Below, in pieces: positions 4,301-27,996 of a stretch of DNA of 64,000 nucleotides. Within the stretch, counting starts at the first letter, position 1; every line of letters starts with the position of its first letter. Both the position numbers and the translations under genes were made by a program. Under the pieces are notes generated by a model. The model had not been told where the DNA came from. It ran no database searches and saw only the letters and a list, made by a program, of their open reading frames with translations. Origin of the DNA: an uncultured Phycisphaeraceae bacterium (lineage in GTDB: Bacteria; Planctomycetota; Phycisphaerae; Phycisphaerales; Phycisphaeraceae). Location of the stretch: contig CALKHT010000056.1 in assembly GCA_937988825.1 (NCBI GenBank), positions 1-64,000 on the forward strand, given 5' to 3'.

Positions 4301-5169
4301 TCCATCTGGTGTTCATCAGCGATCGTGTTGAGGATCAGCTCGTCATCCACGTGCACGATCACATCCAGCGTCTTGAGGTTGGACGCCTGCACGCGTTCAA
4401 TCGCATCACCGATGGGCCGACCAGCCGAAACGATCTCCTCGCCGGTGTCGGTGTCGACGATGGCGGCCACGGCGTAGTGCTCCGGCCGCAGATCCGTCAC
4501 CTTCACCGTCTGCACGTCGTAGAACGTGCGCAGCAGGGTTTCGGTGGTCGAGTATTTCTCATCGATCGCCCGCAGGAAGGTCGTCGCGGGGATCTTGGTC
4601 GACTGGTCGATGCGCATCTGGAGGACGTCCTTCTTGGACACCTCCAGCTCGATCCACGAGCCGCGCTCGGGAATGATGCGGGCCGAGTGCAGCGGGCGGT
4701 CCGCCTCCGCCGAGGCGATCGAGAAGTCCACGCCCGGCGAACGGTGCAACTGGTTGACAATGACGCGCTCGGCACCGTTGATGATGAACTCGCCACCACC
4801 CATCAGCACGGGGATTTCGCCGAGGTAGATTTCCTCCTCAGGAATCTCCGCCACGTCCTTGCGGACCATACGCACGCCGATGCGGAAGGGCATGCCGTAG
4901 GTCAGGCGCAGCTCGCGGCACTCATCGGGGGTGTAGCGCGGCTCATCGAGCTTGTAGTAAAGGTACTCCAGCCTCGTGTTCCCGTCGTAGCTTTCGATGG
5001 GAAACACTTCGCGCAACAGCGCTTCCAGCCCCAGTTCCGGGTCACGCTGATCGTGTGGTTTATTTAACTGAAGAAATCGGTCATAAGCTGCGGTTTGCAC
5101 CTCGACCAGATTGGGTATAGGCAGAGCATCACCACGCTTAGCGTAGTTGCGCACCGAATTCAGCTGCAT
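1381..5169 (-). CDS. rpoB: DNA-directed RNA polymerase subunit beta
   Basis: 1262-aa ORF; [35 protein letters not shown]-terminus and conserved blocks throughout (e.g. [23 protein letters not shown]). Confidence 0.97.
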
Positions 5170-5534
5170 CGATCACCTCGATCAAGCCAGGTTAAAGCCA
5201 GAAAATACAATATGTTAAGTGGACCCCGACACCGCCTTCAGTACGTCGCAAGCACATCAGTATATTCAACACCCGCCCTTTTCACAAGGCCGGTTGGGGG
5301 AAATTTCAGGAATCAGCCCGCTTCAGGGCTTGACATTTTACCAACTTTCGATCCACAAGCCCGATAATCGGCGCATTCCACGAAAGTTCACAAGCTTTCC
5401 ACAGAGGTTTCCACGAAAGAGAAAGGTACACAGGCACACCGGCACGAAGCGCTGGCAATCACCCCCTTCTCAGGCTTCGCGACCTCAGCCATTGTCAATC
5501 GCTTTTTGATTATTGCTTATTGATTGCTGATCTT

Positions 5535-5981
5535 TCACACCCGCCCGTAGATGTACTGACGCATGTAATGAATCGTTTCCTCCTGCGTCTGGGCGTCGTG
5601 GGCGTTGAGGTCGCCAATCGAGATCAGCCCCAGCACCCGCCGGGCCTCGTCGACGACGGGCAGGTGGCGGATGCGGCGGTCCTTGAACACCGTTCGTGCG
5701 TCGCCCAGGGGGGTATCGGGCCGACAGCAGGTGACTGGTTGTGTCATGACCTCGCGCACGAGCGTGCGGGCCGGATCCCGCCGGGGCACCACCACTCGTC
5801 GCAGCACATCGCGTTCGGTGAACATACCGACGATCTGTCCCGCCTCCTCCACCACCAGTGCCCCGATGCGATGGCGGTTCATCAACTGGGCCGCCTCCTG
5901 CACGGTGGCGTCCGGCTCCACGCAATAAACCGTCGCACCCTTGTACACCAGGATGTCCTGAACCGTAGACGACGTCGACAT
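5535..5981 (-). CDS. CBS-domain pair protein
   Basis: 148 aa; two CBS-like repeats (VMT.PVTCCRPDTPLGDARTVFKDRRIRHLPVVDE...VLGLISIGDL). Confidence 0.7.
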   Translation of the reverse strand: MSTSSTVQDILVYKGATVYCVEPDATVQEAAQLMNRHRIGALVVEEAGQIVGMFTERDVLRRVVVPRRDPARTLVREVMTQPVTCCRPDTPLGDARTVFKDRRIRHLPVVDEARRVLGLISIGDLNAHDAQTQEETIHYMRQYIYGRV

Positions 5982-6238
5982 GGCTGCGCTCCTTCAGCGA
6001 AGGGAAATGGAAAGTTTCGGAGACGCTTGCTTTTTATTGTAATTCCCGCCCCCAGCCGCACCAAGAGAAAACTCAGGTTTCTCCCGGTTAAAGTGCGTTT
6101 TCAGGGATCCCCCGATGGACGGGGGAGGTTTAAGGTCAAAGTTCGAGGTTTAGAAATGCTCGTCAGTGTGATCGAACCATCAGGCGCGCTGCATCACCGC
6201 TTGCGTCTTCGAGCTGCTGAATCGCGAACCGCAATCAA

Positions 6239-6733
6239 TCAGAACAGTCTTCCCTGATCCGGCCTGTCAGGTTCGGGGGAAGTGTCGATCATCTCGCGCA
6301 CTTCGTTGAGCAGGTCATCAATATCGCGGAACTGCTTGTAGACGCTGGCGTAGCGCACATAGGCAACCTGGTCCAGCCGCTTGAGCTTTTCCGCGACGAT
6401 GCGGCCGATGTCGATCGCATTGACTTCCTTGTCGTAGGTGCGGAAGACCTGTTCCTCGACCTCCTCGACCAGCTCGTTGATCGCCTCGGCGCTGACGGGG
6501 CGCTTGTAGCACGCCTTCTGCAGGCCGGCGAGCACCTTTTCCCGGTCGAAGGGCACCCGTGAGCCATCCTTCTTGATGACGGCGATGCGGTTGGTTGATT
6601 CGATGTGCTCGTAGGTGGTGAAGCGGCGATTGCAGCTCAGGCACTCCCGTCGCCGACGAATCGCCCGGCCCCCATCGGTGGCGCGCGAGTCGATCACCTT
6701 GTCATCCTGACTCTGGCAGTATGGGCACCGCAT
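6239..6733 (-). CDS. nrdR: Transcriptional repressor NrdR
   Basis: MRCPYCQSQDDKVIDSRATDGGRAIRRRRECLSCNRRFTTYE zinc ribbon followed by an ATP-cone; 164 aa. Confidence 0.9.
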   Translation of the reverse strand: MRCPYCQSQDDKVIDSRATDGGRAIRRRRECLSCNRRFTTYEHIESTNRIAVIKKDGSRVPFDREKVLAGLQKACYKRPVSAEAINELVEEVEEQVFRTYDKEVNAIDIGRIVAEKLKRLDQVAYVRYASVYKQFRDIDDLLNEVREMIDTSPEPDRPDQGRLF

Positions 6734-6842
6734 AACCGCTCATAGTTTAGCGAGGTTACGCGCCGGGGCGAGATGAAGATGTGCGGACGCAGCGGCCGTG
6801 GGTTGCTTGGACGGGGCAACCTCAACGCGGTAGGCTTGGGGC

Positions 6843-7688
6843 ATGGCCATTCGTCTGATCATGCTCGGGGACATCGTGGGCACGCCGGGGCGTCAGGCGG
6901 TGGCGCAGTGTGTGCCGGGGTTGCGTGAGCGGTACGCGGCGGACCTGGTGATCGCCAACGCGGAGAACGCCGCCAACGGTTCGGGTCTGACGCCTGAGCT
7001 TTACAGCAAGATCTGCCGGGCTGGCGTCGACGCGGTGACGCTGGGCGACCACATCTACCGCAAGAAGCAGATCGTGCACACACTGGAAACGGCGTCGAAC
7101 ATCACCCGGCCGGCCAACCTGCCCGCCGCCGCACCGGGTAAACCGTGGATGCGACTGGACATTCCGGGCAAGCGCAGCCTCTTTGTCGTCACCGTGCTGG
7201 GCAGGCTTTTCATGTCGCTGCCGGCGGACAACCCGTTCACCACGCTGGACACCGTGCTCGCTTCGCTGCCCGAGATGGACCCGATCGTGCTGGTGGAGGT
7301 TCACGCCGAGGCGACCAGCGAGAAGCAGGCGCTTGGCTGGTATCTGAATGGCCGTGTGGCTGCGGTGGTCGGCACGCACACACACGTTCCCACAGCTGAC
7401 GCCCGCATCATGCCCGCGACCACCCCGCTGGATCCAACCCGCCGGCCCGGCACCGCTTACATCACCGACATCGGGATGTGCGGCCCGCATGAATCGGTCA
7501 TCGGCCGGTCCATCGAACCGGTGGTCAAACAGATGGCCACATCGATGTACGCCTCGTTCGACGTCCCGCCGGGCGACCCGCGAGTGAACGGTGTTTTCAT
7601 CGAGATTGACGAGTCGACCGGCCGCGCCACCGCCATCGAGCGCATCGAGCAGTCAGCCGATCCCAACGCCCCGCCCTTCGTGGCGTAA
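6843..7688 (+). CDS. YmdB-like metallophosphoesterase (2',3'-cyclic-nucleotide phosphodiesterase family)
   Basis: MAIRLIMLGDIVGTPGRQAV...DLVIANAENAANGSGLTPE...VTLGDHIY, a typical YmdB/TIGR00282 N-terminus. Confidence 0.75.
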   Translation: MAIRLIMLGDIVGTPGRQAVAQCVPGLRERYAADLVIANAENAANGSGLTPELYSKICRAGVDAVTLGDHIYRKKQIVHTLETASNITRPANLPAAAPGKPWMRLDIPGKRSLFVVTVLGRLFMSLPADNPFTTLDTVLASLPEMDPIVLVEVHAEATSEKQALGWYLNGRVAAVVGTHTHVPTADARIMPATTPLDPTRRPGTAYITDIGMCGPHESVIGRSIEPVVKQMATSMYASFDVPPGDPRVNGVFIEIDESTGRATAIERIEQSADPNAPPFVA

Positions 7689-7804
7689 CTCACGCGGTTA
7701 TCGGATTTCCCACTTTGCCCAATCGCTGTGCCTGCGGGGATTCTCCCCCGGCGTTTCTTCACGGGGTTAAGCCGGCCAGATCGGGTCCCGATAAGTTCAC
7801 AGTC

Positions 7805-8806
7805 ATGAGCACCGACCATCTCCCAGTGGTTGCGATGCGAGAGCAGCCAGCGGCGGCGCGGCCGTGGTGGTCGCTGCGCGCGTGGGAGGATGTGCCCCTG
7901 GCACGCAAGTTCGGGTTGCTGCTCACCTTGACGGCGGTGAGCGGCTGGGGGATGGGCGTGGCGCAGGCATCGCTGAACCAGCTCTGGCCGGCGGTGCTGG
8001 GCATCGGGGTGCTCCTCCTCGTCATCACCGGGCTGGCGCATCGCTGGATCTGGCAGCCGCACGAACTGCTGGTGAGACAGGTCGAAGCGCTGCGACTGCG
8101 ACGACGGGCGGCAGCGTTGCGACACCTGCCCGTCGACCGGGGCGATGAGATCGGCCAGATGGCGCGCTCGATTCAGGAGATCGGCCTGATGGCGATCCAG
8201 TCGATGGCGGAGGTGCGCCAGCTTCGCCGGACGCTCGACCACCGCATCGCCACTGCCACCCGCGTCGCCTGCGGGCAGCTCGAGCAGCTTGCCATGCGCG
8301 ACCCGCTGACGGACCTGGCCAACCGGCGTTTCCTTGATGAGCAGCTCCGACCGCTGCTCGTCACCGCCGGCCGCAACGGCGAGGAGTTCGCCTGCGTGCT
8401 CATCGATTTGGACAACTTCAAGCGAGTGAACGACACGCTGGGTCATGCAGCTGGCGATGAGCTGCTGATCTTCGTGGCGGGGCTGATCCGCGCGGTGATC
8501 CGCCGGGAGGATTACGCCGTGCGGCTGGGCGGCGACGAGTTCGCCGTGTTCATGCCGGGCTGTCCGCCCCACCGCGCGCTGGCGATGGCGGAGCAACTGA
8601 CGGCACTCTTCCGCCAGCAGATGCGCACCACCATGCCCGCGGAACTGGGCTGCGACCTGTCCATCGGCATCGCATCGCTGCAGTCGGATGTGATCGCGAC
8701 GGGGCAGAACCTGCCTGACAATCCCGATCAGGCGCTGATCGAGCTGGCGGACCGTCGGCTGTACGATGCAAAACATCAGGGCAAGGGCAGGATCGTGTCG
8801 ATGTGA
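7805..8806 (+). CDS. Diguanylate cyclase (GGDEF) with N-terminal TM/HAMP-like region
   Basis: RLGGDEF active-site motif, DPLTDLANRRF...DLDNFKRVNDTLGH...RLYDAKHQGKGR. The ORF is listed from 7715; the ATG at 7805 (MSTDHL) is the more plausible start. Confidence 0.8.
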   Translation: MSTDHLPVVAMREQPAAARPWWSLRAWEDVPLARKFGLLLTLTAVSGWGMGVAQASLNQLWPAVLGIGVLLLVITGLAHRWIWQPHELLVRQVEALRLRRRAAALRHLPVDRGDEIGQMARSIQEIGLMAIQSMAEVRQLRRTLDHRIATATRVACGQLEQLAMRDPLTDLANRRFLDEQLRPLLVTAGRNGEEFACVLIDLDNFKRVNDTLGHAAGDELLIFVAGLIRAVIRREDYAVRLGGDEFAVFMPGCPPHRALAMAEQLTALFRQQMRTTMPAELGCDLSIGIASLQSDVIATGQNLPDNPDQALIELADRRLYDAKHQGKGRIVSM

Positions 8807-11111: not shown

Positions 11112-11981
11112 TTGATGCGATTGCCCAGACGAGATGAATACCGACCGATCAGTGCCCGGCCGCGCCACAGCCCGCGGTCGTTGGTCGTGTGGCTGATCGG
11201 ACTGAACCTGTTCATCTTCGGCCTGGATGGTCTGCTGCTGAGCAATGGCATCGGCGTGCAGCAGACAATCAATGGTGTTCCGCTCACCATTCAGGGCAGG
11301 CCGGTCATTTCCCCCCTGCTGCAGTATCTGGGCCACTTTTCCGTCGATCTTGCCATCTTTAAGGGGCATATCTGGCGTTTCATTACGTTCCAGTTCCTGC
11401 ACGCGAACCTGGCGCATCTGGGGTTCAATATGATTTCACTGTACTTCTTCGGCCCGATGGTCGAGAAGTACTGGGGGGCGTACCGATTCCTGGCGTTTTA
11501 CCTGCTGTGCGGCGCGGCGGGGGCGCTGGCATATCTGGGGCTGTGGGGCGCCGGAATGGTCGAATCGACGGCCGGCCAGCCCCTTGTTGGCGCTTCGGCA
11601 GGCATTTTCGGCGTGCTCATCGCCGGGGCGATCCTGGCGCCGGATGCCCGTGTCATGCTGCTGATCCCGCCCATTCCGATGCGACTGCGCACGTTGGCGC
11701 TGATCGCGGTGGGCATCGGAGTTTACACGGTGGTGTGGCATGGCGATGAACCGGGTTCCAACGCCGGGGGACAGGCGGCCCATCTGGGCGGAGCAGCATT
11801 GGGGTATGTCCTGATGCAGCATCCGGGCTGGCTGGGGCTGAAGCGACGCAAGCGAAGGAAACGACGCAAGGGGTTTGCAGCCGATCCTGATGAGCAAAAC
11901 CCGGATCCGCATGAGGCCGCCCCGACAGACAACGTGCCAGGGCCAGCTAAGATAGATCAGGGCAACGTAAGCCTCGACTGA
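11112..11981 (+). CDS. Rhomboid family intramembrane serine protease
   Basis: Multi-TM; catalytic GASAGIFGV (GxSG) and AHLGG histidine motif; basic C-terminal tail. Confidence 0.8.
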   Translation: MMRLPRRDEYRPISARPRHSPRSLVVWLIGLNLFIFGLDGLLLSNGIGVQQTINGVPLTIQGRPVISPLLQYLGHFSVDLAIFKGHIWRFITFQFLHANLAHLGFNMISLYFFGPMVEKYWGAYRFLAFYLLCGAAGALAYLGLWGAGMVESTAGQPLVGASAGIFGVLIAGAILAPDARVMLLIPPIPMRLRTLALIAVGIGVYTVVWHGDEPGSNAGGQAAHLGGAALGYVLMQHPGWLGLKRRKRRKRRKGFAADPDEQNPDPHEAAPTDNVPGPAKIDQGNVSLD

Positions 11982-12003: not shown

Positions 12004-12873
12004 ATGGGCTGGAATGATCGATCCTACTACTACCGTGAGAACCCCCGCATGGCGCTGGGCGGGGGGTTCAGCCGTTTCAGTGCGGTGACGTGGATCATCA
12101 TCATCAACGTGGTCGTGTTCCTGCTGGACAGCGTGCTTTGGAACTCGGCCCGTGGCAGTTCCTTCGCCCCTGTCCGGTGGGGCTATTTCAGCGTGGATAC
12201 CGCCATCCTCGGCGGACAGGTCTGGCGCTGGATCACCTTCCAGTTCCTGCACGCTGACATCTGGCACATCTTCTTCAACATGTTGGTGCTCTTTTTTTTC
12301 GGCCCGATGATCGAGGGCTACTGGGGCAGAACGCGATTTGTGATCTATTACCTGCTTTGCGGCATGGCGGGGGCGCTGCTGTTTGTCTTTTTCGTCATGG
12401 TGCCGGGGCTGCTGAATGTCAGCGCGGCTTCGCCGCTGGTGGGGGCCTCAGCGGGTGTATTTGGCGTGCTGGTCGGCTGTGCCATCGTCGCGCCGAATCA
12501 GCGGATCATGCTCCTCTTCCCGCCCATTCCCATGCAGATTCGCACACTGGTGCTGATCGTGCTGGGCTTCGCGGTGTTGGGCGTGCTGGTCGGCTCACTT
12601 AACGCGGGCGGTGACGCGGCCCACCTGGGCGGCGCGGCACTGGGGGCACTGCTCATGAAGAATCCGCGGTTGATCAGCTGGCTGAACATGCGCGGCGTGC
12701 GCTCGCGCTGGGAAGCCAGCCGCTGGCAGCGTCAGCAGCGACGCCTCGCCGCGGAAGAGGAGGAGATCGGCCGCATCCTGCAAAAGGTCAAGGACCACGG
12801 ACTGCACAGTCTCACCCGTCACGAAAAGCGGATGCTGCAGCGCGAAACAGACCGGCTGCGCAGCGCAGGGTGA
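12004..12873 (+). CDS. Rhomboid family intramembrane serine protease (tandem paralog)
   Basis: GASAGVFGVLVG and AHLGGAALG motifs; same architecture as the upstream paralog. Confidence 0.8.
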   Translation: MGWNDRSYYYRENPRMALGGGFSRFSAVTWIIIINVVVFLLDSVLWNSARGSSFAPVRWGYFSVDTAILGGQVWRWITFQFLHADIWHIFFNMLVLFFFGPMIEGYWGRTRFVIYYLLCGMAGALLFVFFVMVPGLLNVSAASPLVGASAGVFGVLVGCAIVAPNQRIMLLFPPIPMQIRTLVLIVLGFAVLGVLVGSLNAGGDAAHLGGAALGALLMKNPRLISWLNMRGVRSRWEASRWQRQQRRLAAEEEEIGRILQKVKDHGLHSLTRHEKRMLQRETDRLRSAG

Positions 12874-12941: not shown

Positions 12942-14144
12942 TTACTTTAGCGGGCGCATCTGCCAGATGGCGCTGTTGGGGCCATCGGGGATGAGGTAGA
13001 GGTAGCCATCCGGGCCCTGCTGGACGTCGCGGATGCGGGTTTGCAGGGGGATGCGCTCTTCCTCGACGACGCGGCCGTTCTCGATCTTCACGCGGATGAG
13101 CGCCTGCGATGACAGGCCACCGATGAACGCGCTGCCCTTCCATTCGGGGAACACATCACCGGTGTAGAACGTCATGCCCGAGGGAGAGATCACCGGCGTC
13201 CAGACGCGCACCGCATCGGTGAACTCCGGCCGGGTGTCCGGGTTGGGAATCGGCGTGCCGTCGTAGTTGATACCCCAGCTCACGACGGGCCAGCCGTAGT
13301 TTTTGCCCGCCTCCACCTTGTTCAGCTCATCACCGCCCAGTGGGCCCATCTCCACCACCCACAGGTCTCCCGTGGCGGGATCGATCGCCGCCGCCTGCAT
13401 GTTGCGATGACCCAGCGACCAGATTTCCGGCTTCGCACCGTCTCGGCCAACGAACGGGTTGTCCTTCGGCACGGAACCGTCATCGTTCAGGCGAATCACC
13501 TTGCCCAGATGGTTATTCAGGTCCTGTGCGGGCTGGAACTGAAAGCGGTCGCCGATCGTGAGGAAGATCTGATTTTTGTCGTTGAAGACGATGCGGCTGC
13601 CGTAGTGCAGACCGCGCGGCACCCAGGGCTCGTGAACGAACAGTTCCTGGAAGTTCTCGATGCGGTCGTTGACGAATCGGCCGCGACCCAGCGCGGTGGC
13701 GCTGGTGTTGTCCGGACCGGCCTTGACGTAGGAAAAGTAGACGAACTGGTTCTCGTTGAACCTGGGGTGTACCGCGACATCGAGCAGGCCACCCTGCCCC
13801 TCGACATAGATTTCCGGCAGACCGGGAATCGGGTCAGACACCTTTCCCTCTTTGTCGACGACGCGCAGCCGACCGGGTTTCTCGGTCACGAGCAGTCGGC
13901 CGTCGGGCAGGAACGCGATCCCCCAGGGTCGATCCAGCCCGGTGGCGTAGATACGCACGCTGGTCGGCCCCGCGGCGGTGAGATCGGAGCGGACCTGCCG
14001 CCCCACCTGCGCCTCAACCTGTGATGCAACCAGAACCTGCGCGAGCACGGCGGCAGCCAACATCCAGCGGCGATACAGCATGTCTGAATCCTTATTCCGG
14101 GAAGCAATACGTGCCAAACACGTGCAGATTCTATACCAGATCAC
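12942..14144 (-). CDS. PQQ-dependent soluble sugar (glucose/sorbosone) dehydrogenase, secreted
   Basis: Signal peptide (MLYRRWMLAAAVLAQVLVASQVEA) and beta-propeller SGDH-like blocks (GLDRPWGIAFLPDGRLLVTEKPGRLRVV, HLGKVIRLNDDGSVPKDNPF). Confidence 0.75.
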   Translation of the reverse strand: MIWYRICTCLARIASRNKDSDMLYRRWMLAAAVLAQVLVASQVEAQVGRQVRSDLTAAGPTSVRIYATGLDRPWGIAFLPDGRLLVTEKPGRLRVVDKEGKVSDPIPGLPEIYVEGQGGLLDVAVHPRFNENQFVYFSYVKAGPDNTSATALGRGRFVNDRIENFQELFVHEPWVPRGLHYGSRIVFNDKNQIFLTIGDRFQFQPAQDLNNHLGKVIRLNDDGSVPKDNPFVGRDGAKPEIWSLGHRNMQAAAIDPATGDLWVVEMGPLGGDELNKVEAGKNYGWPVVSWGINYDGTPIPNPDTRPEFTDAVRVWTPVISPSGMTFYTGDVFPEWKGSAFIGGLSSQALIRVKIENGRVVEEERIPLQTRIRDVQQGPDGYLYLIPDGPNSAIWQMRPLK

Positions 14145-14159
14145 CCGCGGCGATAAGGT

Positions 14160-16007
14160 TTACGCGCTCGAAACCATGTTCATGGACCGCTCCAGTGTTG
14201 CCAGCTCCGCCTTCCACGCCTGGCGGGTGGCATCATCGACGTTCGGATCGGGCAGCAGCGAGCGGCGGGTGCAATTGACCAGCGCCTGCAGCGTCTGATA
14301 CCGGCGGGTGGTGTCGATGTCGGCGGGCAGGCAGTCGCGGATCACCTCCAGCACCTGGTCGGTATCAATTTCGCCACGACACCGGGCCATCAGCAGCGAC
14401 CGCAGCGCAGCGAACGCGGCTGCGGAATAGTCAGCGGTGAGTTCATCGACCCGTGAAAGCAGCGCATCGTCCATCTCAGGCAGCACGGGTTTCAGGCACC
14501 AGCGAATGAAGGCTCTGCGGTCCTCGGAGCCGGGTTCGGGGTCGAGGACGGGAATGATGAGATCGCCCACCCGGCCGGGCCGTCGCAGGTCAGGGCTGAG
14601 CCGTTCGATGCGGGCGGTCATGAGCAGCCAGACGACGCGACCGCGCAGTTTCGGGTCGCTCATGAGCGCCTGGATCTTGCCGGTGAGGCGTCGCTCAGTG
14701 GGATGGGCGTCCGCACCGACGCCGCCGAACTGCGTGTCCGCCTCATCGACGAAGATGATGACCTTGCCCAGTGCTTCGAGTACCCGGCGAAGCTTCTCGA
14801 AGATGACATCCGTCTGCCCGAAGTACTGGCTGCGAATATTCTTGAGCACGAGCACGGGCAGCCCCAGTGCTCCGGCCACCGCTTCAAAGATGAACGTCTT
14901 GCCTGAGCCAATCGGCCCCGCCACCGCCGCACCGGGCAGAGCATCCGGACCGGTCGAACGAATGCGCGGGATGAACTCCTCCTGCAGGAACGCACGCAGG
15001 CGCGAATGGCCCACCACATCATCAAGCGTGTGACTGGGTTTCTTGAACTCGACGACATCCTCGCCCAGCGTCGCGGTGATGTGGCGTTCGACACGATCAA
15101 TCACATCGGTCGCGGTGATGGGCTTGCCGTGATGAGCAGCGCCCAGCAGCAGTTGTCGCAGCGCGTGCAGCGACAGCCCGGCCGAGAGTTGTGCCAGCTC
15201 GCGCGGCGTGATGACCATATCGACGGGACGTTGCGCGGTGAAATGCTCGATGAAGAACAGCCGCTCGTTCTCATCCGGCGGTGGCACCTCGACACTGAGC
15301 ATCTGCGGCAATGTCGCGATGCGTGGGTGAATCGCGTGGCGCGAATCCGCCAGGAGAACCACGCTGTCATCGCCTTCCATGAAGGCCGGGTCGCAGAACC
15401 AGTCCTGACAAATGGCAATGCGCTGGCGGTCCCCCGGCGAAAGGCGTGTGATGTCGCCATCAGCCGCGGGCAGCAGCATGTCCGCTGCCTCGATGAGGAT
15501 GAGCAGCCGAAAGCGCTTGCCGTTGGCCGGTTGAGCGCGCGAGCAGAGCGTAAGCTGGCGCAGCACCTCCAGCGCCGCGGTGGGTCGACCGGTCGCATCA
15601 GCGATCAGACGATCGAACTGATCCTCCAGCGATTCCCGCCGGGCACGCGCAGCCTCATCGGTGAGCGACTGCAGAATGAGCTGATCGAGCGATTGGCCTG
15701 TCTTCCAGCGAATCCACGCATCGCGCAGCACCTGCCGATCCCGATCGTGCAGGCACCGGATCGGCCCGTTCAGTTCATAAACCAGAACAATGACCCCCTC
15801 CACGGAACATCGGCTGCACAGATACGGCACCAGCGGCACATACCGCTGAGATGACTCCAGATAAAAAAGACCATGCACCTCCCCCGACAGCAAGACGGAT
15901 CGCGACTGCCCTGCATTAATGATGCGGGCCAGCCGGGAAAAAAAGTCATGTTTGGGAGGGGCAACGAGAGTCATGGTTGAAAGAAAGGCACGAAGACACG
16001 GAGGCAC
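14160..16007 (-). CDS. AAA ATPase of the classical clade (Vps4/FtsH/Cdc48-like) with a roughly 350-aa N-terminal domain of unknown function
   Basis: Walker A GPIGSGKT, Walker B IIFVDEAD, second region of homology LMTARIERLSPDLRRPGRVGDLIIPV (compare TNRPD.LDPAL.RPGRFDR). Sits directly downstream of the PspA-like gene on the same strand. Confidence 0.7.
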   Translation of the reverse strand: MPPCLRAFLSTMTLVAPPKHDFFSRLARIINAGQSRSVLLSGEVHGLFYLESSQRYVPLVPYLCSRCSVEGVIVLVYELNGPIRCLHDRDRQVLRDAWIRWKTGQSLDQLILQSLTDEAARARRESLEDQFDRLIADATGRPTAALEVLRQLTLCSRAQPANGKRFRLLILIEAADMLLPAADGDITRLSPGDRQRIAICQDWFCDPAFMEGDDSVVLLADSRHAIHPRIATLPQMLSVEVPPPDENERLFFIEHFTAQRPVDMVITPRELAQLSAGLSLHALRQLLLGAAHHGKPITATDVIDRVERHITATLGEDVVEFKKPSHTLDDVVGHSRLRAFLQEEFIPRIRSTGPDALPGAAVAGPIGSGKTFIFEAVAGALGLPVLVLKNIRSQYFGQTDVIFEKLRRVLEALGKVIIFVDEADTQFGGVGADAHPTERRLTGKIQALMSDPKLRGRVVWLLMTARIERLSPDLRRPGRVGDLIIPVLDPEPGSEDRRAFIRWCLKPVLPEMDDALLSRVDELTADYSAAAFAALRSLLMARCRGEIDTDQVLEVIRDCLPADIDTTRRYQTLQALVNCTRRSLLPDPNVDDATRQAWKAELATLERSMNMVSSA

Positions 16008-16150
16008 GAAGGAAAGGCGCAGGCAAATGAATTAGCTACCACACGGGCGACTACATCGCGCCTCTTCTGAATTACTCATTGCCAATTGCTTATTGCTTAC
16101 TGCTTATTCCATTCCCAACTGATTACTTATTACTGATTATTGATTACTCC

Positions 16151-16972
16151 TCATTCCGGCAGTCTCGGCTCACCCACCCGCGCCTCAGCATCCCGCCCGT
16201 CCGATTCCTCCGCCAGCCCGATCAGCGCATCGAACTCATCGGCGATCCGCGTTGACTGGGCATATCGAATGAACTCTGCCTCCTGCGCCCTGGTGTCGGT
16301 GCCAGCCAGTTCCTTGGACACGCGGGCCCTGGCCTTGAGTTCCTGTCGCATCTGACGCATGTCCGCCAGCTCGCGCGAGGTGCGGTCCCTGCTGATGCCC
16401 GCGAGCATGTCGTTGAGTTCCGCCTCTTCCTTGGCGGTGATCACCTCGGCGACGGCCTCGGCCTGCTCGCTGCGCAGCTTCTCGATCTCACGCAGCATCT
16501 GCGTCAACTGAATCTTGTGGCCGGCGATGGTGCTGTCCATCTCCTGCACCTCCGCCTCCAGTTCGCTGATGCGCGGTGTCTTTTCCTCGATCTTCGATCT
16601 GAAATCCTGATAGGCCAACATGCATTTGCGATAGTCCTCGCTGGCCTTGATCTGCTCCAGCGTGGCCCCATTGGCCTTCATCTGCTCGACCACCGTACGC
16701 GCTTTGGCCGCCGCCCCTTCCTTGAGCTGCTCCAGATGAGCGATCGCCTCCGATTCCGCCTTGATCTTGCTCATCTTCGCCTCGTGCTGCACGATCAGCC
16801 GGGCGATGGCGTCCTTGTACTGGCGAATCGACTCGGTCTTGCTGGCGATGATCTGATCGTACGTCGCCTTCACCACGTGCGGGCTGGTCGACAGCGCGCT
16901 GCGGGCAGCATCGATGCGGCCGGTGATCAGATAACCCAGGGCGCGAAAGTAACGGCCGACGGCTTTGAACAT
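16151..16972 (-). CDS. PspA/IM30 (Vipp1/LiaH)-family protein (ESCRT-III superfamily)
   Basis: 273 aa, coiled-coil throughout. N-terminal amphipathic MFKAVGRYFRAL resembles the PspA/Vipp1 alpha0 (MGLFDRLGRVVRANL), and heptad-rich E/A/K/Q repeats run the length of the protein. Family call from pattern only. Confidence 0.55.
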   Translation of the reverse strand: MFKAVGRYFRALGYLITGRIDAARSALSTSPHVVKATYDQIIASKTESIRQYKDAIARLIVQHEAKMSKIKAESEAIAHLEQLKEGAAAKARTVVEQMKANGATLEQIKASEDYRKCMLAYQDFRSKIEEKTPRISELEAEVQEMDSTIAGHKIQLTQMLREIEKLRSEQAEAVAEVITAKEEAELNDMLAGISRDRTSRELADMRQMRQELKARARVSKELAGTDTRAQEAEFIRYAQSTRIADEFDALIGLAEESDGRDAEARVGEPRLPE

Positions 16973-22662: not shown

Positions 22663-24804
22663 TCACGCCCGCTGGCTGCCCGTGGGAATCGTCACACCGA
22701 GAGTGGTGAGCTTCTGGTCAGCGTACCCCGCCTCCCGCGACAGGCTCAGCAGCTTACGCAGCTCCGCCGTGAAGCCCTCATCCTTCGACTGCGCCAGCAC
22801 CTTGCCGATGAGTGCCGCGATCGAGAGGTTCTTCACATCCTCACTGTCGATCCCTGAATCACGGATGATGTCGGCAATGCGCTGCGGCAGCGAGCGGTCG
22901 TCGCCGTCGCCGTTTCCATTGCCGTTGAGCAGCGAGTTCGACAGGCGCGACAGGTGCTCGGAATTGTTGACGAATCGGTCAAGCTGCTTGCCGCGTGTGA
23001 TGGCGTTGAGGATGGTGTCGAAGAACACCGCCTCGCCGCCCACGATGTCGATCTTCGCCGTCTTGAGTGCCTCGGCAAGCACCTTCGCCTGCTCGGCCGC
23101 GATCTCCCGCATGACGTCGATCTGACGCAGTTCGACCTGAAGCTGCTTGTTGAGGTTGAGCTTGAATTCTTCGTGCTCCTTGCCCACACCGTCGAGCTTT
23201 TTCATCGCTTCGGCCTTGGCGGCGACACCCTCGGCTTCGGACGCATACTTCTGCCGCATGACCTCAGCTTCGGCTTCGCCCTGGGCACGAATCGCTTCGG
23301 CCTTGGCGCGCTCGCCCGCCGCCTCCGCCTCCAGCTTCTTCTGCACCACTTCCGCTTCGGCGGCACCATACTTCTGCAACGCGCTGGCCTTGGCGTGCAT
23401 CACCTCCGCTTCCGCCAGGCCGTGCGCTGCGACCTCCGCCTGCACCGCCTCGGCCAGCTTCATCTTGCCCAGCGCTTCCTTCTCTGCCGCCTGACGCCGT
23501 GCCTCGGCCTCGATGAGAATCTCGTCCGCCTCGAACTGGCTGGCCAGCTTACTCGCCTCGGCCTTCTTCACCTCGCGGACCTTGTCCTCCTCGGCCTGCG
23601 CCGTTGCAGCTGTCACCCGCACCGCCTTGGCGCGCTCGGCCGCCATGATCTCTTCCGTGTCGCGGATCTTCTGCTGTTCCTCAACCACCGCGCGCTCGAC
23701 GATGACACGCTCGCGAATCACATCCTGAATCTTCTTGCGCTCGACCTCCAGCGCCTTTTCCTTCTCGATCCGCGCCAGTTCCACCACGCGCAGACGTTCG
23801 GTCTCCTCCAGTTCCTGCTCGCGTTTGACACGCTCCAGTTCCACCGCGTCGGTGCGTTCCTTGGCGCGCTGCGCGACGAGAATCTGCCGCGCCTTGTTCT
23901 GCTCGGCAACGCCCAGTTCCTCCTCCGTGGTGATGCGGGCACGCTCCGCCTTGTAACGCTCCTCCTGCACCACCTTTTCCGCTTCGGCCTGTTCGCGGGC
24001 ACGCACGGCCGCCACCTCGCGGGCCTGCCGTGCTTCCGCCTCAGCCTGCTGACGCTCCAGCTCCAGAATCACTTCGCGCGCTTCGACATCCTGTTTCTTG
24101 ATCGTCTTTTCCTTTTCACGCAGGATGCTGTTGGCGACGATCGCTTCGCGCGCGGTCAGATCGGTGATCTTCTTGATACCTTCCGCGTCCAGGATGTTGT
24201 TCGGATCCAGCTGGTTGAGATCGGTCTGCTCGAGGTAGTCGATGGCTGCGTCATCCAGCACGTAACCGTTCAGGTCGGTACCGATGTGCTGGAGAATCTC
24301 GTTCTTGAAACGTTCGCGTTCAGTGTAAAGCTCGGTGAAGTTGAACGACTTGCCCACCGTCTTGAGCGCTTCGGAGAACTTGGCGTCGAAAAGTTCAATC
24401 AGTGCGTTGATGTCCGATGCCCGGCGGCAGCCGATCGACTGTGCGACCTGCAGTACGTCCGCCGCCACATTGTTCACGCGAACGAAGAACGCCACCTTGA
24501 TGTCCGCACGGACATTGTCCTTGCAGATCAGGCCCTCGGAGCCATGACGATAAATCTCGATCCGTTTGACCGAGATGTCCATGAACTCCTTGCGATGGAT
24601 AACGGGCACCACGATCATGCCCGAGAAGCTGACGCGGGTCTGGCCAATCCCCGTGCGCACCAGCGCTGTGCCCTGTTCCACCTTGACGTAGAACTTGGCG
24701 ATCATCGCCAACACGCCAAAGAGGATGATGAAAACGAAAATGACGGCCGTCACAATCGTCATCGTCAGGGTACCGGCCGCGAGCATTAGTGGGACACTGG
24801 TCAC
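22663..24804 (-). CDS. Flotillin-like SPFH/band-7 protein (YqiK/FloT type)
   Basis: N-terminal TM followed by an SPFH domain, then a very long EA-rich (ERQQAEAEARQAREVAAVRAREQAEAEK...) flotillin-type repeat region; 713 aa. Confidence 0.8.
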   Translation of the reverse strand: MTSVPLMLAAGTLTMTIVTAVIFVFIILFGVLAMIAKFYVKVEQGTALVRTGIGQTRVSFSGMIVVPVIHRKEFMDISVKRIEIYRHGSEGLICKDNVRADIKVAFFVRVNNVAADVLQVAQSIGCRRASDINALIELFDAKFSEALKTVGKSFNFTELYTERERFKNEILQHIGTDLNGYVLDDAAIDYLEQTDLNQLDPNNILDAEGIKKITDLTAREAIVANSILREKEKTIKKQDVEAREVILELERQQAEAEARQAREVAAVRAREQAEAEKVVQEERYKAERARITTEEELGVAEQNKARQILVAQRAKERTDAVELERVKREQELEETERLRVVELARIEKEKALEVERKKIQDVIRERVIVERAVVEEQQKIRDTEEIMAAERAKAVRVTAATAQAEEDKVREVKKAEASKLASQFEADEILIEAEARRQAAEKEALGKMKLAEAVQAEVAAHGLAEAEVMHAKASALQKYGAAEAEVVQKKLEAEAAGERAKAEAIRAQGEAEAEVMRQKYASEAEGVAAKAEAMKKLDGVGKEHEEFKLNLNKQLQVELRQIDVMREIAAEQAKVLAEALKTAKIDIVGGEAVFFDTILNAITRGKQLDRFVNNSEHLSRLSNSLLNGNGNGDGDDRSLPQRIADIIRDSGIDSEDVKNLSIAALIGKVLAQSKDEGFTAELRKLLSLSREAGYADQKLTTLGVTIPTGSQRA

Positions 24805-24871: not shown

Positions 24872-25576
24872 TCACGACGATTGTCCGGGTTTTGGCATCG
24901 TGTCTGACGCCTGCGGGTGATCGTGCGACGCATCCTGCCAGAAGCCGCGAACCACATACACATTCGATTTCGCGTCCTGGCCGATCACCACCGCCTCATC
25001 GCCCTTGCTGAGCATTGTGCGATCGTCGCTCGTCCTCACGTTTAATCGCAGCGGCGCACCATTGGTCGGAATCTCCACCTGACCGAGCCGATGCGTAACG
25101 GTGAGCGACACCACGGTGCCACGCCGACCGATCAGGTCCAGTTTCTGTTCCGCCTCCTCCTGTTCCTTCATCCGAGCGAAAAGCGCCTTAAGCGGCAGCG
25201 TCAAAACCTTCGTCAGCAGCAGCGAGCCGATCACCATCGGCACCAGCGCCGCCAGTTGCAGCAGCCCACCCCACTTGCCAATCAACGGGTAACTGAGCAC
25301 CCCCACCATCCAGAACGCGAGGATGAACACCGACCAGAGCACCAGCACCGGCACCGTGCCTATGTGGAAGAACCGCAGGATCGAAGCGCCAATGCCCGCT
25401 TGCAGCATGCCGTGCGGCGTGTCCGTATCCAGATCCAGATCAGTGTCCAACCCCGTATCCGCGTCGAAGTCAAAGTCGAGGCTGTCGATACCCACCGCCC
25501 CCAGGATCACGACCAGCCAGTACAAGGTCGTCAACCCCAGCAATACGGACGCGATGAGATTGAGCATGCTGCCGGT
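24872..25576 (-). CDS. NfeD/YqiJ-like membrane protein with C-terminal OB-fold (flotillin partner)
   Basis: Multi-TM N-terminal half and C-terminal ...GTVVSLTVTHRLGQVEIPTNGAPLRLNVRTSDDRTMLSKGDEAVVIGQ... OB-fold-like segment, as in YqiJ/NfeD proteins encoded upstream of flotillins. The listed ORF extends to 25690; the ATG at 25576 (MLNLIASVLL) is the more plausible start. Confidence 0.6.
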   Translation of the reverse strand, partial: TGSMLNLIASVLLGLTTLYWLVVILGAVGIDSLDFDFDADTGLDTDLDLDTDTPHGMLQAGIGASILRFFHIGTVPVLVLWSVFILAFWMVGVLSYPLIGKWGGLLQLAALVPMVIGSLLLTKVLTLPLKALFARMKEQEEAEQKLDLIGRRGTVVSLTVTHRLGQVEIPTNGAPLRLNVRTSDDRTMLSKGDEAVVIGQDAKSNVYVVRGFWQDASHDHPQASDTMPKPGQSS

Positions 25577-25941
25577 ACACGCTTCGATGAACTCCGCCAC
25601 GGCTGCACCTCCTCGACCGCGGTCCACTATAGCGGCGGGCCCATTCCCGCAGATGAGAAAATGAAGGATCGCGATCCCACTGATGCGCAAAAAAATGAAT
25701 AGCTCAAATATGCCCCCGCAAAACGACTGGCGACGACATGGCCCGAGCTATCAGCGTAGCCGAAGTTGGAACGGGATGAAAGGGGTGATCGGGGATGGCG
25801 TGGAGGGAGGGAGATGAGGATTAACAGAACCGCCGCACTGAATTTCTCCCTCTCCCCGCGGGGGAAAGGGTCAGGGTGAAGGGGCGAAGGTCCACCGGCG
25901 CCAATCCCAGCGACGCTGTCCGAACACCGCTGCGCCGTACG

Positions 25942-27996
25942 CTACTTATGCCCCAGCACCGCCACGCCGTCCCACATGCGCGGCGGAGCATCGATGTACT
26001 GGCGGCAGCGGGCTGCCAGGGTCGCCGACGCCGGGTCGCCGTATCGTTTGACCAGCGCCTCAAACCGTGCCGCTGCCTCGGTGAAATGGCCCTCAAAGTA
26101 GATCGCCAGTGCCCGCTCGTATGCGTCGCGCAGGAGCAGCAACCGTTCATCAACCTCGCCCGACACACCCAGTAGCTCGAACACATCCGTCGGATGTGCC
26201 CTGCCTTTGACGACCACGCGGTCGAGCTGCCGCCAGTGGAACTGATCACCTGTGCTTTGCTGAACCGCATCGGACGCCAGCAGGTGCGTGCCATACACCT
26301 TGTTGAGCGATTCGAGGCGGCTGGTGAGATTGACGCCGTCGCCCATCGCAGTGTAGGTCAGATGATCAGCAGTGCCGACGTTTCCCACGACAACGCGGTC
26401 AGTGTGTAGACCGATGCGCTGCTCCAGCAGGATACGGCCATCGCGCTGGCGTTGCTCGTTGACCTCGCGCAGACGTCGCTGCGAATCGAGTGCCGCCCGA
26501 CATGCCGCAGCGGAATGGTCCGGCACCGGCAGCGGCGCGTTGAAGAAGGCGAAGATGCCATCGCCGACGAACTGCACCAGCGTACCCTTGTGCCGCGCCA
26601 GCGCATCGGCGGTTGTTTCAAAGTAGGCGGACAAATCCTCCACGACACGATCAGGTGTGCGCGACTCGCTGTGCCAGGTGAAGTTCGCCAGATCGCTGAA
26701 CATCATTGTGACCTCGCGCACCTGTCCGCCGAGCTTCGCTTCCTCACCGTTGGCGAGCAGCGACCTCACAAGCTCGGCCGGCACATAACGTGAGAAAGAC
26801 CTTAGTCCCGCCTTCATGCGTTCCGCCGCAGCAATAACGGTGGTTACCTCGGCAATGCGTGAGGGTTGCATCGCCTCGCCGGTCAAATCGAACCGGCCGA
26901 TGCGATCCAGCTCCTGTGACACCTCGCGCAGCGGTCGGGTCATGCGCTGCGTGAAGCGATAGCCCAGCACAATCGCGGTGAGCACCGCCAGTGCGCCAAT
27001 GCTCGACGCCCAGATGGCGTTGTAGCGGGCGACATGCAGGTACTCATCGGTCGGCACAAGCACGGCGAGCATGATCTGTCCGCCACCACCGAGACTGATG
27101 TGGTCGACCAGCGTGGCATACGCCTGCCCACCGAACGATAACACCCGGCGGTGCGTACCGTTATCTTCCATCACTGCGGCCCGCAGTTCTGCCGGGGTGG
27201 GCACGGTCACATCATCCTGCGGTGCGGTGCCGGCAATGAGCTGGCCTTGTGGCGAGAGAATGAAAATGCTGCCGGCTGAATCACCGCGCGTTTCTTCAAG
27301 AAAATGTTGCAGGGCCGTGACGGTCAGGTCGATCGTCAGCACACCGCGCAGCTCGCCATCCTTCGTGTAGATGGGCAGGCTTGTGGTGATCCCGCGTTCC
27401 TCGACGCCATAAAAGGTGTAAGGTTCGCTCCACGCGATGCCGCGGGCCCGCACCGCGTCCTGATACCAGGGACGATTGCGTGGATCGAAGTCTGGCGGCC
27501 CGGGGCCGTCGTAAACCAGTTGGCCATCACGCATGAGATAGTCGTACGCTTCGGGACCATCGTCCGCGACGGAGTAGTTGACGATGATCTCACCATCGGG
27601 CCGACGATTCGCCCCCACGAAAAGGCCATCCGATTCCTGTCCGTAGGAAACCCACTCCAGCCCCTCATCGGTGGCGATCACCCGCGCCAGTGCCATACCC
27701 ACCGCCTGCCAGTCCAGCGGCGGCGTCAGCAACAGTTCCTGATGGCCAGCCAGATAAAGCAGCACCGATTCAGCGCTGCGAATGCGGGCATCCACCTTGT
27801 GTCGCACCGATGTGGCTGTGCTGGCCAGATATCGATTGCTCAGATCCTCCACCGACTGGCGGGTGGATATGTACGCCACCGTCGCAACAACCAGCACCGT
27901 ACCGAGCAGTGTGCTCAGCAGGAGCATCAGCACCGCCGTGCGCAGACGAAACGTCATGCGCTCGCGCGATTGAAACTTGTTCCGACGTCGCGGCAT
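25942..27996 (-). CDS. Class III adenylate/guanylate cyclase with periplasmic Cache-like sensor and TM/HAMP region
   Basis: N-terminal TM, a large periplasmic domain, a second TM, then the CHD catalytic core (TMMFSDLANFT...LVQFVGDGIFAFFNAP...GLHTDRVVVGNVGT...YTAMGDGVNLTSRLE), followed by a C-terminal helical region. Confidence 0.8.
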   Translation of the reverse strand: MPRRRNKFQSRERMTFRLRTAVLMLLLSTLLGTVLVVATVAYISTRQSVEDLSNRYLASTATSVRHKVDARIRSAESVLLYLAGHQELLLTPPLDWQAVGMALARVIATDEGLEWVSYGQESDGLFVGANRRPDGEIIVNYSVADDGPEAYDYLMRDGQLVYDGPGPPDFDPRNRPWYQDAVRARGIAWSEPYTFYGVEERGITTSLPIYTKDGELRGVLTIDLTVTALQHFLEETRGDSAGSIFILSPQGQLIAGTAPQDDVTVPTPAELRAAVMEDNGTHRRVLSFGGQAYATLVDHISLGGGGQIMLAVLVPTDEYLHVARYNAIWASSIGALAVLTAIVLGYRFTQRMTRPLREVSQELDRIGRFDLTGEAMQPSRIAEVTTVIAAAERMKAGLRSFSRYVPAELVRSLLANGEEAKLGGQVREVTMMFSDLANFTWHSESRTPDRVVEDLSAYFETTADALARHKGTLVQFVGDGIFAFFNAPLPVPDHSAAACRAALDSQRRLREVNEQRQRDGRILLEQRIGLHTDRVVVGNVGTADHLTYTAMGDGVNLTSRLESLNKVYGTHLLASDAVQQSTGDQFHWRQLDRVVVKGRAHPTDVFELLGVSGEVDERLLLLRDAYERALAIYFEGHFTEAAARFEALVKRYGDPASATLAARCRQYIDAPPRMWDGVAVLGHK

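Follow-up and report, generated by a model that had tools for sequence, protein, structure and literature searches.

The stretch of DNA analysed here (the window) comprises 64,000 nucleotides from an uncultured Phycisphaeraceae bacterium (assembly GCA_937988825.1, contig CALKHT010000056.1, positions 1 to 64,000 of the forward strand). It encodes, side by side, a protein that we accept, mainly on sequence-profile evidence, as a divergent member of the PspA/IM30 family (ESCRT-III superfamily), and a tandem AAA ATPase whose first AAA domain (D1) is dead and whose second (D2) carries the motifs of an active module. The pair is conserved in related genomes and the PspA-like protein ends in a conserved tail. 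We consider it somewhat more probable than the alternatives taken together (about 0.55) that the ATPase, as a double-ring hexamer, extracts PspA-like subunits from a membrane polymer, with the tail being engaged and D1 serving for docking. The first-pass annotation of this DNA had put forward the pair together with an analogy to Vps4. A computational prediction in print (Popp et al., mSystems 2024, PMC11237479; bioRxiv 2020) already contains such a pair and likens it to Snf7 and Vps4. The window locus is thus a new instance, and its value is limited accordingly.

The 273-aa PspA-like protein and the AAA open reading frame (ORF) lie on the minus strand, as first annotated (Table 1). The identity of the smaller protein as PspA/IM30, also claimed at that stage, is not borne out by the single sequence but is supported by its family profile and by Foldseek. 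Scanned alone against Pfam PspA_IM30 the protein reaches E 0.51 (10.3 bits, cut-off 33.9), and an NCBIfam scan returns SMC-type coiled-coil noise only. The family to which it belongs is tightly conserved and occupies 970 database clusters at E<=1e-3, some members of which have a precomputed PF04012 match and some of which bear the NCBI/JGI names PspA/IM30 or phage shock protein A. When the 30 orthologues that make up our alignment A1 were scanned singly, 12 matched PF04012 (E<=0.01; best E 9.8e-7), and no other family recurred in more than three of them. The A1 profile finds its best PDB matches in Vipp1 and PspA chains (E 0.025-0.06); the alignments are colinear and place ELAGTD of the family opposite ELAGAD of Vipp1.

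The predicted structure points in the same direction. An alignment-based AlphaFold2 (AF2) model (mean predicted local distance difference test score, pLDDT, 77; core above 90) consists of a helical hairpin (residues 31-100 and 112-197), one more helix (201-250) and then a disordered tail, that is, the arrangement of an ESCRT-III-type fold, in which an alpha1/alpha2-3 hairpin is followed by alpha4 and alpha5. All of the top nine Foldseek matches of this model in the PDB are Vipp1 (best E 2e-4), aligned over 217-254 columns, roughly the full length, at 14-18% identity. At the N-terminus an amphipathic segment, MFKAVGRYFRALGYLITGRIDAAR, has six residues that are invariant in A1 (G13, Y14, T17, G18, D21 and R24); the AF2 model predicts a helix there, at low confidence, and by analogy with PspA/Vipp1 the segment is a candidate for membrane binding.

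The C-terminal part of the protein has a regular layout in A1: the motif EFDxLIGL, a variable and mostly acidic linker of 15-25 residues, and a terminal [KR]-L-P-E. Within the first of these, which in the window reads EFDALIGL, residues E246, F247, L250, I251 and G252 are invariant. EFDxLIGL was found in all 54 orthologues of the related loci, and [LIV]PE lies within the last six residues in 53 of the 54, the exception having IPD; the LPE tail is present also in the distant locus L082. It had been suggested that the acidic tail acts as a docking motif of the kind known as the MIT-interacting motif (MIM). A conserved short motif does exist, but it is not the acidic stretch, which is the variable linker between the two conserved elements. 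Where a flexible tail ends in a brief conserved motif, as here, the motif resembles a docking or engagement handle, and it is on this basis that we read the tail as one. The motif EFDxLIGL...LPE is a contribution of the present analysis and is not described in the available text of Popp et al. 2024.

The close homologues of the ATPase all start at the ATG at 15974 (MTLVAPP...) and not at the GTG at 16007; the protein is therefore most likely 604 aa long, rather than the 615 aa of the ORF first reported. The second region of homology (SRH; LSPDLRRPGRVGD), on which its placement among classical AAA proteins first rested, is present; so are Walker A, Walker B, an aromatic pore loop and sensor 1 (LLMTAR). 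In the 615-aa ORF, Pfam AAA (PF00004) covers residues 362-481 with E 1e-15. In the alignment of the AAA-protein family (A2), SQ[YW]FGQTD and LSPD[IL]RRPGRVGD, the arginine fingers included, are invariant or near-invariant. D2 retains pore loop and arginine fingers and is predicted to hydrolyse ATP.

By sequence the protein is a classical-clade AAA and is not of the FtsH/ClpX type. The best matches of the family profile in the PDB are VAT, AFG2 and p97/Cdc48 (VAT D1, 66 bits), with 'sqyfGqtd' of the query opposite 'skyyGqse' of VAT. NCBIfam scores fall in the order CDC48 (57 bits), CdvC (30.4), PAN (25) and FtsH (20), all far below the family cut-offs (803 for TIGR01243, the CDC48 model, and 650 for CdvC), and the CdvC match covers part of the domain only. 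The aromatic pore loop and SRH do not single out Vps4, because they are common to all classical AAA proteins. Beyond D2 a helical extension runs to the stop codon. It includes a near-invariant motif, RRYQTLQALVNCTRRSLLPDP, which matches no known domain, and whose general version QRRxQxLQAxxxC..LhP is kept in family members that are only about 30% identical.

The N-terminal half had been described as a domain of some 350 aa of unknown fold, and a search for an MIT-like three-helix bundle had been proposed. It proves to be a degenerate AAA domain of about 305 aa, with an alpha/beta core and a lid and no three-helix bundle. In the AF2 model (pLDDT 88, predicted TM-score 0.83) residues 10-305 form the alpha/beta core followed by a helical lid, and Foldseek aligns about 630-660 columns over both halves of the protein to Rix7/NVL, p97/Cdc48 and AFG2, with E down to 2e-18. 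An hhalign comparison of the D1 and D2 halves of the family alignment (probability 86.5%, E 4.6e-6) sets LLILIEAADMLLP opposite the Walker-B strand VIIFVDEADTQFG and SVVLLADSR opposite the sensor-1 strand, and aligns the lids too. The P-loop position of D1 reads SVLLSGEVHGLF, so that Walker A is missing, and the Walker-B position holds LILIEAADMLLP; the single copy of GxxxxGK[ST] in the protein is that of D2. This analysis thus identifies D1 as an internally duplicated, dead AAA domain, and the protein as a tandem (type II) AAA of the Cdc48/Rix7/PEX type with an inactive D1 and an active D2. The Vps4-like architecture of the original proposal gives way to a tandem AAA nearest to Cdc48, VAT and Rix7.

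D1 is strongly conserved and has many invariant residues, which suggests a binding or scaffolding role rather than a decaying remnant. The motifs YELNGPIR, LExLRQLTLCSR, IEAAD and QDWFxDPxF are conserved in A2 and are recognisable in distant members. Searched alone against 1.84 billion cluster representatives, D1 recovers 534 clusters at E<=1e-3, 218 of them with E<=1e-10; on its sequence it marks a distinct family of moderate size.

Conservation of the gene pair was assessed by scanning one genome per GTDB species. This gave 543 stretches encoding a relative of the AAA protein, of which 80 loci were fetched (L numbers below identify these and some more distant members); adjacency was counted in the 71 that have at least 1.2 kb of upstream flank. 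A PspA-like gene lies on the same strand within about 6 kb of the AAA gene in 54 of the 71, in agreement with the adjacency first claimed. It is directly upstream (gap of 400 bp or less) in 38, within 1.6 kb in four and directly downstream in three; in the other nine there are intervening genes (three genes over about 3 kb in eight, about 6 kb in L078). The closest homologues of the pair come from metagenome-assembled genomes (MAGs) of Phycisphaerae/Planctomycetota, and the linkage is retained well beyond them. It is kept in L082, where the AAA protein is 52% and the PspA-like protein 50% identical, and in L084, a Limnocylindrales MAG, where a PspA-like gene whose product is 27% identical (hhalign probability 98%) is directly upstream. 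In L087 the order is a PspA-like gene (25%, probability 98.1%), a 182-aa gene, a Band_7 gene and the AAA gene, an independent association of PspA-like, SPFH and tandem-AAA proteins. The adjacency is far beyond chance, and the linkage spans phyla and PspA-like identities down to 25-27%. The L087 arrangement (4189..8743, with a Band_7 protein of 445 aa) lies in a region with a phage integrase and several toxin-antitoxin pairs, and is possibly on a mobile island.

The company kept by the pair is, in contrast to the pair itself, variable. In the window the two genes form the distal end of a run of five co-oriented minus-strand genes, which encode a YqiJ-like protein, a flotillin-like protein, a giant DUF3686 AAA+ protein, the PspA-like protein and the tandem AAA. 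The giant gene is upstream of the PspA-like gene in just 13 of the 80 loci, all in the Phycisphaerae clade; wherever the flank reaches further it is preceded by a flotillin-like gene (nine loci) and a YqiJ-like gene (five loci). An alternative operon, found in L022, L024, L026, L030, L047, L049 and L078, encodes a coiled-coil protein of about 250 aa with two transmembrane (TM) helices, the PspA-like protein, a periplasmic binding protein, an ABC permease, an ABC ATPase and the AAA; in L082 an NMT1/OmpA protein and a VWA protein are added. The 2-TM coiled-coil family, whose two TM helices are N-terminal, occurs in 19 of the 80 loci directly upstream of the PspA-like gene (L022 5344..6090, L030 5371..6117, L047 5220..6002, L053 11659..12555 and 15 others); it has no homologue in the window and probably corresponds to what Popp et al. 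call 'TM+Snf7'. Since the giant gene accompanies the pair in so few loci, it is the PspA-like protein that stays with the tandem AAA, and no other partner is constant across operon types. The minus strand of the window has no terminator-like site in the gaps that separate the giant gene, the PspA-like gene and the AAA gene. A functional pairing of the two proteins is well supported.

Of the mechanisms considered, the following is the likeliest. The PspA-like protein would form membrane-associated polymers, and the 604-aa protein would be its dedicated partner, assembling into a double-ring hexamer. The hexamer would engage PspA-like subunits by way of the EFDxLIGL helix and the terminal LPE tail, which would either bind to the ring of conserved D1 domains or pass into the pore. 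D2 would then thread the subunits, extracting them from the polymer and thereby driving, with ATP, the turnover or remodelling of the scaffold. This would be the job that Vps4 does for ESCRT-III, done by a machine of the Cdc48 or PEX1/PEX6 type, and in this genome the pair would be the distal part of a five-gene membrane-maintenance operon. A stricter version, that the tandem AAA is a dedicated disassemblase of a PspA-type polymer, and that it reads EFDxLIGL...LPE-COOH as a MIM-like signal through a dead but conserved D1 ring that takes the place of MIT, we advance only tentatively, and regard as doubtful.

The likeness to ESCRT-III and Vps4 (CdvB and CdvC) lies in three points: a superfamily polymer protein adjoins a classical-clade AAA, that AAA has an aromatic pore loop and arginine fingers, and a short conserved C-terminal motif follows a flexible linker, as MIM does. 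There are differences, too. The AAA domains are two, not one; a Pfam scan of the AAA protein gives no MIT and no Vps4_C match, and the Vps4 beta-domain is lacking as well. The AAA sequence is nearest to Cdc48/VAT, the partner belongs to the PspA/Vipp1 branch and not to Snf7/CHMP, and the motif differs from both MIM1 and MIM2. The analogy with Vps4 and MIT therefore fails in architecture, although it may hold in function. With Cdc48/p97/VAT, Rix7/NVL and AFG2 the predicted structure aligns over both domains. Unlike Cdc48/p97/VAT, however, the protein has neither an N-terminal double-psi barrel nor an adaptor domain of another kind (its first helix begins at residue 10), its D1 has no P-loop, its CDC48 score is a small fraction of the cut-off, and its conserved C-terminal extension is distinctive. 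The arrangement recalls PEX1 and PEX6, in which D1 is degenerate and D2 is the motor.

Much of this had been foreseen. Popp et al. described, in their main text and in Text S2.2 and Table S3, a 'PspA + Inactive-Classical-AAA+Classical-AAA' pair, with examples from Clostridium sp. BNL1100 (AEY64321.1/AEY64320.1) and Ca. Handelsmanbacteria (OGG56892.1), and proposed an ATP-dependent membrane remodelling comparable to that by Snf7 and Vps4 (PMC11237479). They also described longer operons in which PspA, a membrane-anchored divergent Snf7 and the ATPase occur with an ABC ATPase, a permease and PBPB/OmpA (PMC11237479). Going by these descriptions, the window pair is of the same kind, a PspA homologue adjoining a two-AAA protein with an inactive N-terminal domain. 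The longer operons, too, have their like in L022, L024, L026, L030, L047, L049, L078 and L082, with a TM coiled-coil protein, a binding protein (OmpA in L082), an ABC permease and an ABC ATPase. In the window, by contrast, the pair is joined to the flotillin/YqiJ/DUF3686 module and not to ABC or TM-Snf7 genes. That Popp et al. reached the same remodelling inference independently we count in its favor. No experimental work on a bacterial AAA directed at PspA was found in the literature searched, and recent reviews state that a Vps4-like ATPase appears to be absent in bacteria.

Several observations weigh against the extraction of PspA-like subunits as the function of the ATPase. The AAA gene has no PspA-like gene in reach in 17 of the 71 loci (it stands alone in, for example, L014, L016, L025, L041 and L058, the last from Alienimonas), and it is solitary in the distant members L081, L085 and L086; such genes may indicate that the ATPase has other substrates, or that its partner is encoded elsewhere. 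The PspA-like protein of the distant L084 has no LPE tail. In many loci the 2-TM coiled-coil protein and the ABC transporter are encoded between or beside the pair, and any of these could be the true client. Finally, the best-known link of PspA to an AAA+ protein, that with PspF, is one of regulation, in which PspA acts as an inhibitor of the ATPase and not as a substrate.

From these observations the most serious alternative can be built, namely that the PspA-like protein acts on the ATPase as a regulator or as a membrane adaptor, keeping it inactive or recruiting it to damaged membrane, the clients being TM-Snf7-like proteins, flotillin or misfolded membrane proteins. Inhibition of PspF by PspA in Proteobacteria (PMC7619361) provides the precedent, and the resemblance extends to a PspA-family protein being coupled to an AAA+ encoded nearby. 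Moreover, further membrane proteins are encoded beside the pair nearly always, be it the 2-TM family, ABC components or, in L087 and the window, Band_7 proteins. PspF, however, is a sigma-54 enhancer-binding protein, an NtrC-type AAA+ with a Fis helix-turn-helix (HTH), whereas the ATPase here is a classical-clade tandem protein in which a Pfam scan and the AF2 model reveal no DNA-binding, HTH or sigma-54 module. The PspF circuit is thus inapplicable, and a PspF-like transcriptional role of the ATPase was rejected on the same ground. The constancy of the PspA-like partner also speaks against this alternative, and a conserved flexible C-terminal tail on a polymer-former would be a typical substrate handle for classical AAA unfoldases. 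Because some AAA genes are solitary and the membrane proteins near the pair vary, this alternative stays in play; all in all we judge it unlikely.

Less probable still is that the ATPase is an assembly chaperone, which loads PspA-like (and TM-Snf7-like) subunits onto the membrane instead of disassembling their polymer. The conserved surface of D1 could hold monomers, but the protein has no holdase-type domain in the Pfam scan or the AF2 model, and threading or unfolding is what characterises classical AAA proteins that combine an aromatic pore loop with paired arginine fingers. That the adjacency is incidental, and the two proteins act in unrelated processes, would fit the 176 bp that separate the genes in the window and the genomes in which the AAA gene is alone; set against a same-strand PspA-like gene in 54 of 71 loci, and a linkage kept across operon contexts and phyla, it is very improbable. 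The least credible reading, which makes the ATPase a genuine orthologue of Vps4/CdvC and gives it an MIT-type adaptor, has in its favor an adjoining ESCRT-III-superfamily gene and the weak partial CdvC match, and is refuted at the level of architecture by a D1 that is a dead alpha/beta AAA domain and not a three-helix bundle, by the missing MIT and Vps4_C matches, and by best sequence matches to Cdc48/VAT/AFG2 and not to Vps4.

The module that precedes the pair in the window has a counterpart in the operons of Popp et al. Their Table S3 lists YqiJ/YuaF, then Band-7 with a coiled coil and flotillin, then a beta-propeller with a coiled coil and AAA (PMC11237479), and the window order corresponds to that of such YqiJ/YuaF-flotillin-propeller-AAA+ operons, which occur with or without a CesT/Tir-PspA pair (e.g., Dokdonia ANH61663.1), with a YqiJ_N-like protein, a TM helix plus Band_7 plus coiled-coil protein and a giant DUF3686-coiled coil-AAA protein. 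It differs in that no CesT/Tir gene was seen in the window and in that the pair follows the module, so that two contexts which Popp et al. list apart are united. The Phycisphaerae-specific joining of two PspA-associated modules into one five-gene run is an addition of this analysis. A related case is that of Bacillus subtilis, where the SPFH protein YdjI localises PspA (PMC8581546).

The first gene of the run is a borderline match to Pfam YqiJ_N (E 1e-4; 22.9 bits, cut-off 23). The flotillin-like protein, scanned at full length against Pfam, gives no match even at E<=10; its N-terminal 238 aa alone match Band_7 (PF01145) with E 2e-11. Apparently the Glu/Ala-rich coiled coil sets off the bias filter, and an automatic pipeline would probably label the gene hypothetical. 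In the giant protein DUF3686 covers residues 51-491 (Pfam E 2e-182) and DUF7902 residues 613-696 (E 8.5e-24), and these are accompanied by a coiled coil and an AAA_5/AAA P-loop module at residues ~1298-1422 (AAA_5 E 8e-7). Pfam words DUF3686 as 'ATPase involved in DNA repair', and no mention of it was found in the literature searched. Its position between flotillin-like and PspA-like genes, in the window and in 12 related loci, argues for a membrane-related role rather than DNA repair. The stop codon of the giant gene and the start of the PspA-like gene are 29 bp apart. In four Phycisphaerae loci the corresponding place is taken by an extra gene of 313-335 aa, whose product has two TM helices and is helical in its C-terminal half (L006 7539..8537, L007 7695..8636, L009 7963..8961, L012 7154..8161).

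The spacer between the PspA-like and AAA genes is A+T-rich, against a G+C-content of ~0.59-0.65 throughout the window and about 62% in the genome, and is built of tandem units (7-nt ACTGATT x4.4, 7-nt ATTGCTT x3.4 and 8-nt AAGGCACG x3.5). It is unconserved in the four closest loci, and a regulatory role was therefore rejected; probably it arose by an insertion or by slippage specific to the strain. A promoter scan of 15 kb gave no sigma-70-like site, such a scan being uninformative for this organism. Pfam, NCBIfam and PADLOC scans of the five genes gave no reason to place them in a defence system, the only matches being weak noise (IetA P-loop and LmuB coiled coil), and this possibility was rejected.

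Beyond the run, a glucose/sorbosone dehydrogenase gene (GSDH, E 9e-135; 12942..14144, minus strand), whose product has a signal-peptide-like N-terminus, begins 15 bp past the AAA stop codon and may be co-transcribed with the AAA gene; a functional tie was rejected, as none of the 80 loci has a homologue. The YqiJ-like gene is directly preceded by a gene for a dCache-sensor adenylate/guanylate cyclase (25942..27996, minus strand), which is unconserved in the related loci. On the plus strand there are two adjacent paralogous genes for rhomboid-family intramembrane proteases of 289 aa each (11112..11981 and 12004..12873), the second with a DUF6576-type C-terminal tail.

Table 1. Positions of the genes, domains and motifs discussed, in window coordinates.
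Feature	Position	Strand	Basis
YqiJ/YuaF(NfeD)-like membrane protein, 272 aa, first gene of run	24872..25690	-	Pfam YqiJ_N
Flotillin-like protein, 713 aa: N-terminal TM helix, SPFH/Band_7, long Glu/Ala-rich coiled coil	22663..24804	-	Band_7 on N-terminal part
Giant AAA+ protein, 1850 aa	17002..22554	-	Pfam DUF3686, DUF7902, AAA_5
PspA-like protein, 273 aa	16151..16972	-	Profile of orthologues, AF2 model, Foldseek
N-terminal amphipathic segment MFKAVGRYFRALGYLITGRIDAAR, candidate helix alpha0	16901..16972	-	A1 conservation
C-terminal helix motif EFDALIGL	16214..16237	-	A1 conservation
Terminal LPE tripeptide, candidate docking tail	16154..16162	-	Orthologue conservation
Spacer between PspA-like and AAA genes, 176 bp, A+T-rich, 7-8-nt tandem repeats	15975..16150	-	
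AAA ATPase, ORF of 615 aa (likely protein, 604 aa)	14160..16007 (14160..15974)	-	Pfam AAA, homologue starts
D1, degenerate AAA domain and lid, residues 1-305 of 604	15060..15974	-	AF2, Foldseek, hhalign
D2, active classical AAA module (predicted), residues ~306-545	14340..15059	-	Pfam, profiles, motifs
D2 Walker A GPIGSGKT	14895..14918	-	
D2 pore loop 1 SQYFGQTD, aromatic	14808..14831	-	
D2 Walker B FVDEADTQF	14727..14753	-	
D2 second region of homology LSPDLRRPGRVGD	14562..14600	-	
C-terminal helical extension to stop codon	14160..14339	-	A2 invariant columns
Near-invariant C-terminal motif RRYQTLQALVNCTRRSLLPDP	14244..14306	-	A2

The conserved pair is an obvious candidate for the disassembly and recycling of PspA and Vipp1/IM30 polymers, and, as a compact system of two proteins, it can be expressed and put to the test. 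To the published prediction the present analysis adds three handles, namely the conserved though dead D1, the pore loop of D2, which is VAT-like, and the terminal EFDxLIGL...LPE tail. If the tandem AAA does extract PspA-like subunits by the mechanism outlined above, then AAA proteins of different architecture would have been enlisted at least twice in evolution to turn over ESCRT-III-like scaffolds with ATP. On the stricter version given above, bacteria would own an independently evolved and complete remodelling cycle of the ESCRT-III/Vps4 type, which in the Phycisphaerae would be connected to a flotillin scaffold and to a second, giant AAA+ machine.

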